NCBI GenBank assembly: GCA_964016885.1
Contig: OZ024742.1
Span: forward strand, 353,276,001-353,340,000
Direction of reading: 5' to 3'
DNA: 64,000 bases
Origin: Eledone cirrhosa
Taxonomy: Eukaryota
The translations under genes and the position numbers were made by a program. Of the stretch, positions 14,401-63,571 are shown in pieces; the first letter of the stretch is position 1, and every line of letters starts with the position of its first letter. The notes under the pieces are model-generated. The model made no database searches and was not told where the DNA came from. It saw only the letters and a list, made by a program, of their open reading frames with translations.

Positions 14401-14937
14401 AAGAAGACAATATATTGATCACTATCAAACAGTGGAATTATTATCCTGCAATATAAAATGTCTCAGATATTTCAAGAAGATTATTGTTTTGAAATATTAT
14501 GTATTGTTTTAGAAGGTTTCCTGAATGCTATGTTTTCAATTTGTTTTTAATTGTCTACGTCCATATTTATTATTTTATTTTATTTGTATATGGAAGTAAT
14601 TCAAATTTAATTACTTTTGAAACATTTCTTTTTTTGTAAACTTCCTATTCTGTTTATAGTTCACTATAACGCTTTTATTTGAAGTCAATCTGTTTCATCA
14701 GTTTTTTGTGTTCTGAAATATTTGTTTTCCTTTCAATTTCAGGATGTACTGGATGAAATACCTTTTCTGAAATACAGTTTGATATTGTATTGTTGAGCAG
14801 AAGAATAAATAAGTATACATAAATGACGTTTCGCTTCCATAGAAATATATATATATATATATATGTATGTATATATATATATATATATAAATAAAGTTAA
14901 ATAAAAGTCAAATGATTAAAATTTAGCTTCGTTTATT

Positions 14938-14992
14938 ACTGCTATATATATTTCAGTGACAGCCATCTTTGGCTGTGACCTCTTCAGGCAGT
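14938..14992 (-). ncRNA. Minimal type I hammerhead ribozyme (mirror copy)
   Basis: Reverse complement of 15223-15277 in the left palindrome arm. Confidence 0.85.
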
Positions 14993-15222
14993 TTGAATTA
15001 GTATGGTATAGACAAGTACATATGTTGTTTAGGTGTATGATATTGTCAATACTCTGATATGCCCAGTTCCTTGTTGGGTTGTTAATTCACTGGGGAACTG
15101 GAGTCATATGACTCCAGTTCCCCAGTGAATTAACAACCCAACAAGGAACTGGGCATATCAGAGTATTGACAATATCATACACCTAAACAACATATGTACT
15201 TGTCTATACCATACTAATTCAA

Positions 15223-15277
15223 ACTGCCTGAAGAGGTCACAGCCAAAGATGGCTGTCACTGAAATATATATAGCAGT
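15223..15277 (+). ncRNA. Minimal type I hammerhead ribozyme, intact core
   Basis: ACTGC-CTGAAGA-[ggtcacagcca aaga tggctgtcact]-GAAA-tatata-TA-GCAGT; 5-bp stem I, stem II, palindromic stem III; predicted cleavage after 15272. Confidence 0.85.
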
Positions 15278-15640
15278 AATAAACGAAGCTAAATTTTAAT
15301 CATTTGACTTTTATTTAACTTTATTTTACACTACTCCGGAGTAACCAAAACAACCTGCGCACTTCGTCGAGTGCTCCAGCCTGCATACTGAGGTGTTGGT
15401 ATACAACCAACATAAACTCTAAATCTATATATATAAATATATATATATATATATATATATATATATATATATATATATATAATATATCTACCGATATATG
15501 TATACAGATGCATACCTATGTTAGCAAATATATATGTTTTGTCTTAGTAACTTTGTGGTTCTATGCAAGGGGATGCAGAACAATTATATGAAAGACATAA
15601 ATGAGAAAGTTATGAAAATTGACTTACTTACTAAAATTTC

Positions 15641-15721
15641 AATTCAACTGATTAGTTTCTGTAAGGGGATAAATATGGTTACGGAGTGTACCCATAGAGA
15701 AGCCTTACGTCATCAGGGAGT
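15641..15721 (-). ncRNA. Type I hammerhead with extended stem II (second copy)
   Basis: actcc-CTGATGA-cgtaagg...ccttaca-GAAA-ctaatcag-TT-gaatt; two-copy consensus gives stem I ACTCC/GGAGT. Confidence 0.65.
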
Positions 15722-16514
15722 CTATTCTCAGCTAATCTTCCAGGCAATGCGGAGACACTGGGAACTTATATGAAAAAATTCACTGTATGGAAAAAAGCCA
15801 CCGGGCTAGATTCCAAGACATTGAAAAATTCACTGCCTACTTGGTCAAGTGGCAAATTCAAAAGAATCAATCACGTGACACTGAGGTTAATCTGCTAGGA
15901 GTGGGGGTGCTATTACGACAGAGCGTAGCCACTACTATTAATCACACTAGTAATTTCGGCAAATTTTGCTCAACAAATAATTTGGAGATAAATTATAAAG
16001 AATTAATACATCTACCGACATATGTATTCAGATGCATACCTATGTTAGCAAATATATATGTTTTGTCTTAGTAACTTTGTGGTTCTATGCAAGGGATGCA
16101 GAACAATTATATGAAAGACGTAAATATAATTGTTCTGCATCCCCTTGCATAGAACCACAAAGTTACTAAGACAAAACATATATATTTGCTAACATAGGTA
16201 TGCATCTGTATACATATGTCCGTAGATATATTAATTCTTTATAAGTAACTCCAAATTATTTGTTGAACAAAATTTGCCGAAATTACTACTGTGATTAATA
16301 GTAGTGGCCAGGCTCTGTTTTAATAGCACCCCCACTCCTAGCTGATTAACCTCAGTGTCACGTGATTGATTCTTTTGAATTTTCCACTTCACCACGTAGG
16401 CAGTGAATTTTCCAATGTCTTGGAATCTAGCCCCTCCTTTTTTCCCATCCACTGAATTATTTTTATATAAGTTCCCAGTGTCCCCGCATTGCCTGGAAGC
16501 TTAGCTGAGAATAA

Positions 16515-60284: not shown

Positions 60285-60546
60285 GGATGTTTAATGAGCA
60301 TAGCGATGGATATTACTCAATGTTAGTTAGGTAAGAGAAAAATTGCATTCATCACAAACCAGTTGTCATAATGGATGTTTAATGAGCATAGCGATGAATA
60401 TTACTCAATGTTAGTTAGGTAAGAGAACAATTGCATTCATCCCAAACCAGTTGTCATAATGGATGTTTAATGAACATAGCGATGGATATTACTCAATGTT
60501 AGTTAGGTAAGAGAAAAATTACATTCATCACAAACCAGTTGTCATA
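60285..60546. repeat. Minisatellite, 3 x 88 bp
   Basis: GGATGTTTAATGA.CATAGCGATG... at 60285, 60373 and 60461. Confidence 0.95.
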
Positions 60547-60816
60547 GTGTTAGTCACCAATGTAAAATATATTATTTTAATACATGTTCAGAAATGTAAT
60601 AATCACTTGACTCATTATATAAAAAATATACTAAATTTGAAACAATCTGATTATATATCCCCAATGAGCCTTCAACTCAGAAATTATCTATTTCTGTAGG
60701 TACAACACAAGCCCTTCCTAAATCCTCAGGAACTATACAAGCCGGGTCTACTATTTACATAACATTGCGTATATTTAAAGGAATGCGAAGATTTGAATAT
60801 TAATGGAGAGCAACTG

Positions 60817-60917
60817 AAAGGATGGTAGTGAAACTAACCTAACTATATGTAATAATAGACGTTATTGAAGGATGGCAGGCAAGCCAACCTAACTACATTT
60901 AAAATAGACGTTATTGA
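60817..60917. repeat. Imperfect 2 x ~51-bp tandem repeat
   Basis: AAGGATGG...AACCTAACTA...ATAGACGTTATTGA occurs twice. Confidence 0.7.
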
Positions 60918-61699
60918 TTCGGAATCCTCTGGTGAGAAGCATCCATTATATTAAGTTATTAATTAGAATATGATATCCATATTATAATTTTAAAAGAATA
61001 TATTGCTATAAGCAAACAGGTGCTTATTTAATTCGAAATATTACATTTGCATTATTACTTAATATGAACTATCAACTGTATAATGCTTCTGTGTTGCTAT
61101 CTTCAAGTTGATTCAGAAAGAAATAAACACATTCCGAATTATATTTATAATTATGATATTTCTAAACCATGTGTCGGTAGCAATGATGATTCTGCAACGG
61201 TGCTAAACAACGGTGCTTTTTTAAAGGCTAAGCGCTGTATTCACTTACGTTGTTACAATATATATATATATATATATATATATATACACACAGATATGTA
61301 TATATATATATACATATATATATAAATATTTGTGTGTGTGTATATATACACAGAGAAACACACACATCTTTTCTCTCTCTCTCTCTCTCTCTCTCTCTCT
61401 CTCTCTCTCTCTCTCTCTCTCTCTCTCTCTCTCTCTCTCTCTCTCTCTCTCTCTCTTTATATATATATATATATATATATATATATATATATATATATAC
61501 ATTGTTGTTTGTTCACTTTCCTCTGTCCCGATAACTTAATTAGGTTATCGCTCACACGGATTTTAGTTATCTAGTCTTTAATGCGAAGAAATACCAATGA
61601 GAATCATCAGACTATGATGACGGACTTTTTTCGGACTATTTTTATTCATATGTTAATATAATATTCGCAACAACGCAGCACGCCATATTTAATTTATAT

Positions 61700-62130
61700 G
61701 TCTATTCTAAGGCGGGTAAAATTCCCGATATCCATGGACGAGTTCTCTCCAGCGGGCTCTGTCCCTCATTATCGCTGCCATGTCCTGCGTCTCCAACATA
61801 CCAGTGTCTGTCCTTAGGGCATCAACATACGTTAACCTTGGTCTTCCACTTCTAGTGTGTCCATGTAGGGGCTCCCAAAGGAGCACGGAGTGCAATGTAA
61901 ACTCTGGATGTCGGTGAGCATGTCCAGCTAACCTCAGTTTCCTCTGTATCACTTTTGAACTGACTTTTGGGATGCTCTTAAACAGCTCTGAGTTTTTCAT
62001 CCTCAGTGTATACTGATTAATGTTCAGAGCCATCCTCAGCATTCTCGTGTAGCATCCATCCACCACATGAGTGAGTTTCTTAGTCAGTGTCCAAGTCTCA
62101 GACCCATGCAACAACACAGACTCCACTACT
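61700..62130 (-). mobile_element. RTE-clade LINE 3' fragment
   Basis: VESVLLHGSETWTLT..DGCYTRMLRMAL..RKLRLAGH.HRH..LLWEP.HG..SGRP.LTYVD. Confidence 0.85.
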
Positions 62131-63571
62131 AAATTTAGATAAATCAAATGAAATTAATCTAAATCAAAATTATTGGTGTCAGGCCACAAGACATGCGCCA
62201 TATCACCCGCAAAATAAGCTCTAAAATTCTAACGAGTTGGTCCGAGCATTTTATAATAACTAGAAATTGATTATCATATAAATAAAAATGACTAATCACA
62301 GGAGATACTTTTTACAAATGTGTAACCACACACATCTAGGTAGGTAACTAAATAAAGTTGACCAGAACTTCAAGTATAGATACCTTATAATATGATTAAT
62401 CTTCCCTGTATATATTCCATTAAAGGAACATATTTCACCAATTAATCGGATGGTAAACCACGGAAGTGGATACTTGGATTTTCAACAAGGAAGAAGTTCC
62501 AGCGATATGTGTTTACACTTCAAGTTCAAATCAGCGACTGGCCAGCAACACGTGCTATATCTACTAGAAATGCACACATAATACTAGCTTCGTGCCAGTG
62601 ACGTGAATAGGGTTATCGACAACTAGAAACAGCAGTCGATAACCCTATTCGCGTCACTGACACGAAGCTAGTATTATGTGTGTATTTCTAGTAGATATAG
62701 CACGTGTTGCTGGCCAGTAGCTAATTTTAACTTGAAGTGTAAACACAGATCGCTGGAACTTCTTCCTTGTTGACAATCCAATTATCCACTTCCGTGTTTT
62801 ACCATCCGATTAATTGGTGAAATATGTTTCTTTAATGGAATATATACAGGGAAGATTAATCATATTATAAGGTATGTATTTATGAAGTTCTGGTCAAATT
62901 TATTTAGTTACCTACCTAGCTATGCGTTGTTACACACTTGTAAAAATGATCTCCTGTTATTATTCCTGTTTATTTATATGTTAATCAATTTCTAGTTATT
63001 ATAAAATGCTCGGACCTACTCGTTAGAATCTTAGAGCTTATTTTGCGGACAATATGGCACATGTCTTTCTGGCATGAAACACATAATTTTGATTTAGATT
63101 AAATTCATTTGATTTATCTTAATTTTGGATATAGATACATAAATACGGCTCCTTAATTGTAGAGCTACCTCTGTTCAAAGGACTCGACTGCTGTTTCTAG
63201 TTGTTGATAATCCTATTCACCCCACTGGGACGAAGCTAGTATTATGTGTGTATTTCTAGTAGATATAGCACGTGCTGCTGGCCAGTCGCTGATTTTAACT
63301 TGAAGTGTAAACACGGATCGCTGGAGGTTCTTCATTGTTGAGAATCCACGTATCCACGTCCGTAGTTTAGCATCCGATTAATTGGTGAAATATGTTTCTT
63401 TAATGGAATATATACAGGGAAGATTAATCATATTATAAGGTATCTATTTTTGAAGTTCTGGTCAACTTTATTTAGTTACCTACCTAGCTATGTGTGGTTA
63501 CACACTTGTAAAAATTATCTCCTGTTATTATTCATGTTTATTTATATGTTAATCAATTTCTAGTTATTATA
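62131..63571. mobile_element. Non-coding inverted-plus-tandem element, about 568-bp unit
   Basis: Arms 62131-62620 / 62635-63125 are reverse complements; 62635 recurs at 63203; ends in (TA)n. Confidence 0.85.

Follow-up and report, generated by a model that had tools for sequence, protein, structure and literature searches.

Short non-coding repeats in TA runs of an Eledone cirrhosa genomic window: probable products of Penelope-like elements, including at least one likely retrozyme-type family

What are the short, repeat-built modules that lie in (TA)n runs of the Eledone cirrhosa genome, and which machinery copied them? The question was raised by a stretch of 64,000 nucleotides (contig OZ024742.1, positions 353,276,001 to 353,340,000 of the forward strand; hereafter the window), which has a GC content of 37.7%, is rich in microsatellites and transposon remains, and contains nine such modules. 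These are numbered M1 to M9 in window order, and all positions below refer to the window. In the reading that we consider probable, the modules are short non-coding repeats in (TA)n that were written by the endonuclease and reverse transcriptase (RT) of a Penelope-like element (PLE), and at least M2 is of the retrozyme type, multi-copy and likely non-autonomous. This reading involves no new class of element; the modules would belong to a known class of ribozyme-bearing genomic parasites.

Module structures were derived from self-BLAST, with microsatellites masked, and from reading of the sequence. All nine modules were recovered at the places given in a first-pass annotation, which had also described them as mutually unrelated and non-coding. 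Both descriptions were borne out. Module-to-module BLAST gave no match at E < 0.05, and the sole cross match in the window was one of 15 nt between M3 and PLE1, a coding element described below. The longest stop-free frames spanned 56-111 amino acids, and tblastn with 15 Hydra-type PLE proteins yielded, for queries from this one clade, a best E of 0.14 with the modules, compared with 4e-14 for PLE1 and 2e-39 for the second coding element, PLE2. The proposed design of inverted and/or partial-tandem copies was found in eight of the nine modules, the exception being the monomer M8 (54811); the same eight, and PLE2, carry a partial tandem and/or inverted truncated copy at their 5' side. Copies inside one module were 91-100% alike. 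Unit lengths ranged from 316 to 626 nt, and arms and units together from 192 to 626 nt.

Four modules contain partial tandems. M2 (15482..16989) consists of head-to-head arms of a 522-nt unit, with 1.24 units in the left arm (15482-16126, minus strand) and 1.66 units in the right arm (16124-16989, plus strand). M9 (62131..63567) likewise has head-to-head arms, of a 568-nt unit (0.89 units left, 1.64 units right), with a TA run at its right end only. M3 (17094..17929, minus strand; 626-nt unit, 1.33 units; TA runs on both sides) and M5 (24765..25216, minus strand; 316-nt unit present 1.43 times; a TA run on the left alone) are partial tandems. The five measured values of 1.24, 1.66, 1.33, 1.43 and 1.64 units agreed with the 1.2-1.7 units initially noted. 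M1 (14890..15425) is a perfect 436-nt head-to-head palindrome (14890-15325, arms 100% identical) with a 100-nt right extension and TA runs on both sides. M4 (22462..23035) is a head-to-head inverted repeat with a 42-nt left extension, M6 (35619..36020) a head-to-head inverted repeat (35619-35934) with an extension of ~90 nt, and M7 (54411..54739) an inverted repeat that has a TA run at its centre and a left extension of 34 nt. M8 (54811..55089, minus strand) is a 279-nt monomer between two TA runs. An assembly artefact was considered for the perfect M1 palindrome; on the sequence alone, the different flanks and the one-sided extension argue against it.

Association with (TA)n was assessed with outer ends defined by self-BLAST alone. 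Ten of 16 such ends lay at most 5 nt from a TA run, compared with none of the 26 ends of control repeats and with 0.8% of positions in the background. Bounding by (TA)n, as first proposed, was therefore beyond chance. However, it was not complete: the right end of M5 and the left end of M9 have no TA run, and M1, M4, M6 and M7 reach one on one side only through an extension of 34-100 nt, that of M6 via (CA)n. Compared with a PLE tail of 30-40 bp, the one-sided tails of M4 and M7 fit, whereas M1, M6, PLE2 (170 nt) and M2 (about 220-240 nt) exceed that length.

Inverted repeats flanked by TA would also be seen if the inverted modules were TA-targeting MITEs (transposable elements of the miniature inverted-repeat type) with long terminal inverted repeats, and MITEs that target TA microsatellites exist. 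In such elements fixed, flush termini would stand at the outer ends. These were absent from the modules, in which ends are permuted in phase and asymmetric by 34-240 nt, the arms meet at the centre, and four members hold partial tandems. A decayed element at 23206-24085, which we take to be Tc1/mariner-like, provides a contrast in the same window, with short flush terminal inverted repeats (92 nt) around broken transposase frames and with TA-rich flanks. A MITE origin is accordingly regarded as very improbable.

The sequence at the ends gave further indications. At nine outer ends with an internal counterpart, the internal copy continues with TATA... for 2, 2, 7, 2, 4, 1, 2, 0 and 3 nt. Continuation over at least 2 nt thus occurred at seven of nine ends, against a chance of 9% of unit positions each (p about 1.5e-6, in a small sample of n = 9 in which one end belongs to PLE2). 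This suggests that the nicked target pairs with UA in an RNA, or that joining proceeds by microhomology. Start points had been expected to be circularly permuted among copies, and at the one locus compared the M2 arms do end at different unit phases, neither of them at the hammerhead cut. Inverted joints fall on short palindromes or on overlaps of 0-60 nt, and the internal junction of M3 holds a 7-nt TA stretch. Over 32 nt, the end of the 34-nt M7 extension agrees at 24 positions with a TA-flanked piece nearby, a level reached by 0 of 300 shuffles; this suggests that the outer ends of M7 are natural starts. Here, on the two sides of a single TA run (54299-54358 and 54411-54442), different inserts terminate with this 32-nt motif, which may be a recognition sequence shared by their termini. 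Separately, a 52-nt piece between two TA runs (23084-23135) may be an insertion of this type, although a very short one.

The presence in the window of two coding PLEs with (TA)n flanks and hammerhead motifs was confirmed. PLE1 (18165..20440, minus strand) is 5'-truncated and broken, with an RT thumb, a CxCX5C linker, a GIY-YIG-type endonuclease and TA runs on both sides; its hammerhead candidate (about 18364-18407, score 15.7) has a U3-A8 core. PLE2 (36082..39677, plus strand) is 5'-truncated and frameshifted, also between TA runs. The 5' end of PLE2 is an inverted copy of its own 3' region (36082-36316 corresponding to 39276-39507), so that PLE2 has the geometry of the modules with coding sequence inside. 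Its hammerhead (about 39346-39456, mirror 36136-36244; score 15.7) has a very long stem II; in this motif (36130-36250, 39346-39456) the stem II insert is ~80 nt, compared with the 3-10 nt loops listed for Hydra elements.

With the last frame of PLE2 as query, 15 matches were obtained among 1404 candidate proteins. The alignment of PLE1 and PLE2 to these covers RT and endonuclease and is interrupted by stops and frameshifts. Tblastn matches to P0001 were obtained for both (E 2e-38 for PLE2), and P0003 carries Pfam GIY-YIG. Pfam gave nothing on the three PLE pieces themselves or on an RTE-like piece of the window. In both elements the RT is followed by a C-terminal GIY-YIG endonuclease, and CxxC and CxH motifs are present without CCHH. 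The CxCX5C linker is exact in PLE1 and lacks its first C in PLE2. Both are truncated downstream of RWK and DKT, and DKT is carried by the relatives P0001, P0005 and P0015. By eye, their N-terminal block resembles the Hydra rows and not the Neptune rows of a published alignment (PMC8557442). Motif features and by-eye alignment, rather than a tree, place PLE1 and PLE2 in the Hydra clade.

A PLE origin of the modules is proposed because these two coding Hydra-type PLEs share geometry, flanks and hammerhead with them, because Hydra PLEs have been described as (TA)n-targeting and hammerhead-bearing (PMC8557442), and because the palindromes and short overlaps at inverted joints match those of rotifer Penelopes (PMC3846280). 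An alternative is that all modules are 5'-truncated terminal repeats of many different autonomous PLE families; a partial tandem would then be a longer 3' copy preceded by a short one, and independent non-coding families would not exist. PLE2 has this inverted structure with coding sequence, and opposite-strand hammerhead pairs 100-700 bp apart have been taken as truncated PLEs (PMC4209133). The 7-nt TA stretch at the M3 junction could be left-over target. Moreover, about 670 nt in PLE1 and about 1350 nt in PLE2 lie 3' of the stop codon, longer than any arm or unit, which weighs against independent families. On the other hand, no module matched the 15 proteins below E 0.1 (Hydra-type queries only), and the differing end phases of the M2 arms count against truncation. 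The wider M2 family bears further on this alternative.

Most modules had been said to hold a minimal type I hammerhead ribozyme. Motifs were evaluated with a relaxed, scored scan, devised after the motifs had been seen, with 40 dinucleotide shuffles as null; the counts below include mirror copies, which are not independent. At a score of at least 19, four matches (M1 twice, M5 and M6) were obtained, compared with 0 in each of the 40 shuffles. At a score of at least 17 there were nine, seven in modules and two outside, compared with a shuffle mean of 0.3 and a maximum of 3; the band from 17 to 19 added the M6 mirror, M7, one M9 copy and the two sites outside modules. Scores for M2, M3, two M9 copies, PLE1 and PLE2 were 15.6-16.2, within the chance range (null mean 3.75 at scores of at least 15). 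M1 was the only module that passed a strict scan. Against Rfam, the window gave 84 matches with E values of up to 1; none attained the gathering score, and nearly all were microRNA-type hairpins on TA runs or palindromes. The lone hammerhead match was M5 (HH9, E 0.18, sub-threshold).

The claim held for a part of the set. Hammerheads are clear in M1, M5 and M6. That of M1 (15223..15277, plus strand; mirror 14938-14992, minus; score 22.5) is of type I, with an intact core, 10 of 11 stem II pairs, a palindromic stem III, a 5-bp stem I, a predicted cut after 15272 and a fold z of -2.5. The M6 motif (35829-35890, plus strand, and mirror) scores 21.8 and, in the mirror, 18.2, with a fold z of -3.2. 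The M5 hammerhead (about 24906-24997, score 21.7, predicted cut 24934) is not minimal, as had been thought, but canonical type I with a stem I of ~28 bp; its U3-A8 core recurs in PLE1 and in all three M9 copies. In M2 (16515..16594, plus strand; mirror about 15642-15721, minus; scores 16.1/15.8) a loop II of ~35 nt and a palindromic stem III are present, and the hammerhead is supported by the letters of the wider family. M7 (score 17.5) is plausible, with hammerhead strands that point inward, opposite to those of other modules, and a right arm without the second half of the motif. Motifs are weak or broken in M3 (17347-17424, score 15.6, fold z 0.25), M4 (22851-22883, plus strand, and mirror; A9 changed), M8 (54843-54880; one core base short) and M9 (62770 and 63338, plus; 62485, minus; scores 15.8-17.2, with a predicted fold that hides the GAAA box); those of M4 and M8 were seen by eye and failed the relaxed scan. 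Several hammerheads carry a loop II of 28-50 nt.

When folded as a circle, the M5 unit gave z -5.9 to -7.4, and one of 45 background windows, a plain palindrome, was lower. Values for M2 (-3.0) and M3 (-2.5) overlap the background tail (3 of 45 windows below -2.5), M9 was not unusual, and the PLE 3' ends gave z -0.7 to 0.4 in the same folding; evidence from circular folding is drawn from M5 alone. A link between the hammerhead regions of M5 and PLE2 through a short shared word was tried and was not supported by BLAST.

M2, the one module followed beyond the window, was examined by mapping reads from 4 of 16 listed runs on 16290-16811, which is one M2 unit in shifted phase. Matching records comprised 1715 contigs in X1 and 5915 raw restriction-site-associated DNA (RAD) reads in X14 (organism A), 53 contigs in X4 (organism B) and 2 contigs in X10 (organism G). 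M2 is therefore multi-copy, as had been expected of the units, and forms a diverse family in three organisms, not a single locus; summed depths, given below, are not copy numbers. Pattern scans of metagenome contigs with M2, and with the window's 200-nt repeat, gave 0 matches each. The run search with M2 listed no RNA run, which has no bearing on expression.

Two truncated PLE ends placed one after the other would give M2 a locus-specific junction at 16466/7. However, the bin at this junction had a depth of 133,519 in X1, with 52,786 and 66,424 in its neighbours, and none of 22 loose ends examined fell on it. X4 records 11-13 cross the junction (110/17, 28/75 and 10/137 nt), and in another organism X10 record 9 bridges it, with 177 letters compared with 171 in the unit. 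Among the 22 loose ends, 21 resemble diverged unit sequence by eye; apart from one unclear mix, none runs into clearly foreign sequence, and one starts with a short TA stretch. The Y-to-X side of the unit is crossed by X4 record 15, and return joints from the end of the stretch to its start were found in X1, X4 and X14. M2 is thus likely a closed non-coding unit family. That every module is a truncated PLE terminus is consequently considered unlikely, although this may well hold for M1, M4, M6, M7 and M8. M3, M5 and M9, in which head-to-tail repetition was seen within the locus only, are likely of the same kind as M2, with M5 as the best candidate. The proposed status of non-autonomous, multi-copy family is therefore supported for M2, with moderate evidence for head-to-tail closure, one module of nine having been examined. 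RAD read-end piles at 16381, 16406, 16455, 16585, 16650 and 16758 were rejected as natural termini of the unit, since they coincide with AATT sites.

The 3' half of the M2 hammerhead was also the best-kept part of the unit in X1 and X4. Stem III with the cut site was the deepest bin in X1 (546,503) and in X4, whereas X1 depth was lowest, edges apart, in loop II (14,529). In X10 two patches remain, of which the 3' half of the hammerhead is one. Outside the hammerhead, a block of 54 nt was deep as well (about 345,000). The motif is decayed in each window copy; in contrast, with the family majority letters at 16514, 16517, 16569 and 16588, stems I and II are paired and U16.1 is present, the latter at 517,931 of 518,252 depth. 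These results bear on an alternative in which minisatellites or repeats derived from PLE pseudo-long terminal repeats (pLTRs) spread at the DNA level, by unequal crossover, circular DNA or repair at fragile TA runs, with hammerheads as passengers without a present role. (TA)n runs are unstable, and several of the hammerheads are decayed. In addition, local tandem amplification of pLTRs is allowed for by Li, Clavereau and Pollet (2026; bioRxiv 10.64898/2026.07.22.740005). The preserved 3' half of the hammerhead in three data sets, copies that are short, dispersed and provided with PLE-type extensions, and control repeats that do not adjoin TA runs make this explanation improbable.

Letters shared among copies were informative about the template. 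The four partial M2 copies share six of six listed non-majority letters in the first 110 nt and would therefore come from one source lineage. The copies R1 and R2 share three further non-family letters that are absent from the left arm, which fits two sibling templates better than pure fold-back, though the same result could come from local gene conversion. Changes private to one copy are evenly distributed (9, 9 and 13 in M2; 13, 14 and 14 in M9), as expected for copies alike at birth, and a uniform multimer would give the same pattern.

Together, these data are compatible with the following mechanism. A PLE protein would nick a (TA)n run, and the nicked end would pair with a short UA stretch inside an RNA, where reverse transcription would be primed. 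Copying by the enzyme would extend over 0.9-1.7 units of the RNA, itself circular or multimeric. Head-to-head joining through a short palindrome would follow with a second cDNA, made from the other strand or by fold-back, and different start points on the two sides would leave one-sided extensions of 34-240 nt. The hammerhead would serve to cut multimeric transcripts into monomers. The mobiliser, the priming by TA pairing, the circular template and the ribozyme activity are what we infer; the mobiliser is most likely the Hydra clade present in the window. Partial tandems had been taken to suggest a circular template, with which they are compatible, but a linear multimer would fit too. Similarly, copying of distinct families by PLE RT and GIY-YIG endonuclease had been proposed: for the modules as a group there is good support for PLE-type copying into (TA)n, whereas family status was shown for M2 alone.

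Several observations weigh against this interpretation. Hammerheads are weak or broken in four of nine modules, and the reversed hammerhead polarity of M7 is without explanation. No arm of M2, M3 or M5 holds two hammerheads in the same direction, and these copies could therefore not release a monomer; the M9 right arm alone holds two candidates, weak and 568 nt apart. Both PLEs of the window are broken, and Naiad and Neptune elements have a preference for microsatellites as well and might have supplied the mobiliser instead. With respect to closure of the M2 unit, 22 of 285 loose ends were examined, no X1 or X4 record spans 16466/7 with 31 nt on both sides, and X10 record 9 is a single contig with a depth of 3.1 that matched in two pieces. 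RAD reads stop at AATT sites, one of which is 11 nt from the junction, and 94% of the mapped RAD reads run on unlike the M2 stretch. A coding PLE may bear the M2 unit as a terminal repeat. Evidence from other systems points the same way: a Poseidon-clade PLE needs no hammerhead in vitro and starts at sites that are not homologous to the target (PMC11167929), while seven of nine ends here show TA microhomology, and eight of nine frog retrozyme dimers failed to cleave (bioRxiv 10.64898/2026.07.22.740005).

A more specific version is offered only tentatively. In it, M2, M3, M5 and M9 would be unrelated circular-RNA retrozyme families. A dimeric PLE of the Hydra clade would copy them, primed from the two strands of the nicked (TA)n, with UA starts anywhere in the circle, 1.2-1.7 rounds of copying and head-to-head joining of the cDNAs, and M7 would have been copied from the strand opposite its hammerhead. 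If so, the insertions would be a direct genomic record of PLE reverse transcription on RNA circles. PLE mobilisation of animal retrozymes via circular RNA is a standing hypothesis that rests on co-occurrence and terminal homology. A high-copy non-coding unit with a PLE insertion signature and permuted ends permits a direct test from genome data, in which thousands of junctions would reveal RT start sites, use of TA microhomology, and whether each arm pair had one template or two.

Other repeats in the window were also recorded. Tandem copies of a long interspersed nuclear element (LINE) occupy 1-3271 and 4130-9254 on the plus strand; they are about 95% alike and encode ORF1 (open reading frame 1) and an ORF2 with endonuclease, RT and zinc finger, the latter with a 1004-amino-acid open stretch (5914-8928) that matches Pfam RVT_1, zf-RVT and Exo_endo_phos. 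A relative, about 70% alike, lies at 40746-45263 (minus strand). The 3' end of another LINE, presumably RTE-like, adjoins M9 (61500-62153, minus strand), ends at a TA run, has no Pfam match and contains at 61610 a hammerhead core word without supporting stems. A family of about 15 copies of 200 nt, resembling a short interspersed nuclear element and often arranged as head-to-tail dimers, is not TA-anchored (9553-9943, 25983-26830, 29373-30505, 38779-38974, 50013-50430, 57315-57722 and 63898-64000); one copy lies inside the PLE2 3' region. A near-perfect 68-nt palindrome without TA flanks (11410-11477), a 147-nt direct repeat, 95% alike and 1.57 kb apart, without TA anchoring (47541-47687 and 49113-49259), and three tandem copies of an 88-nt unit, 95-97% alike and with no hammerhead match (60284-60549), were observed as well. 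A 120-amino-acid frame at 50899-51261 (minus strand) has no Pfam match; we presume that it resembles the C-terminal part of a hAT-type transposase.

(TA)n targeting, inverted and partial-tandem structure, tails, these hammerhead variants, the idea of a circular template and PLE mobilisation of retrozymes are already in print; permuted ends with TA continuation are less covered by published work. In a literature search that did not extend to most subscription journals, Repbase or Dfam, no paper was found that treats families of this kind in cephalopods or inverted retrozyme insertions of PLE type. Non-LTR retrozymes were defined by Cervera and de la Pena (2020; PMC7229834), who showed circles in coral, mussel and axolotl and considered PLEs likely mobilisers. 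Li, Clavereau and Pollet (bioRxiv 10.64898/2026.07.22.740005) describe retrozymes, in 35 mostly vertebrate genomes, as non-autonomous PLE derivatives, and known elements, PLE termini in nearly every case, are matched by 24 of the 57 frog families. Like these animal retrozymes, the modules have units that are non-coding, low in GC and a few hundred bases long (316-626 nt, compared with 51-972 in the preprint); they co-occur with PLEs, show head-to-tail repetition and, most clearly in M1, M2, M5 and M6, carry a type I hammerhead. Unlike them, they comprise 0.9-1.7 units, head-to-head and in (TA)n, with permuted ends, and not arrays of complete units. They are known from DNA alone, whereas circular RNA has been shown for the published retrozymes. 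The preprint calls active those loci with two consecutive units with complete hammerheads, which these copies lack, and the available portions of both papers do not describe a head-to-head (TA)n insertion geometry for retrozymes.

Truncated PLE ends (Cervera and de la Pena, 2014; PMC4209133) resemble the modules in their opposite-strand hammerhead pairs, U3-A8 core variant and small palindromic helix III, and circular templates were proposed there for more-than-unit copies. Solo pLTRs of rotifer Penelopes, for which an antisense template is considered possible, share palindromes at inverted joints and mobilisation in trans (Arkhipova et al., 2013; PMC3846280). In contrast to both, M2 seems to form a closed unit family in its own right and not a fragment, and the M5 hammerhead is canonical with a long stem I. 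The Poseidon PLE PAc of Anolis (Frangieh et al., 2024; PMC11167929) cuts AT-rich DNA and extends both strands, as proposed here; it begins reverse transcription at more than one internal position of the RNA, and a tail results from this.

The Hydra clade offers a further comparison. Of the 27 Hydra families tabulated by Craig et al. (2021; PMC8557442), 26 have (TA)n as their listed target; the hammerheads are tabulated too, that of an octopus family among them. The linker of CxCX5C type and the CxxC/CxH motifs of the clade are those of PLE1 and PLE2. The listed Hydra hammerheads, with a loop II of 3-10 nt and non-palindromic or short stem III loops, are unlike those of the modules, which moreover have no coding frame and carry extensions up to 100-240 nt compared with the usual 30-40. 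Hydra-clade PLEs, including Hydra-1_Obim, nevertheless share with the modules the (TA)n target, a 3' hammerhead with an extra base after A9, truncated copies in partial-tandem and inverted arrangement, and a one-sided tail (PMC8557442).

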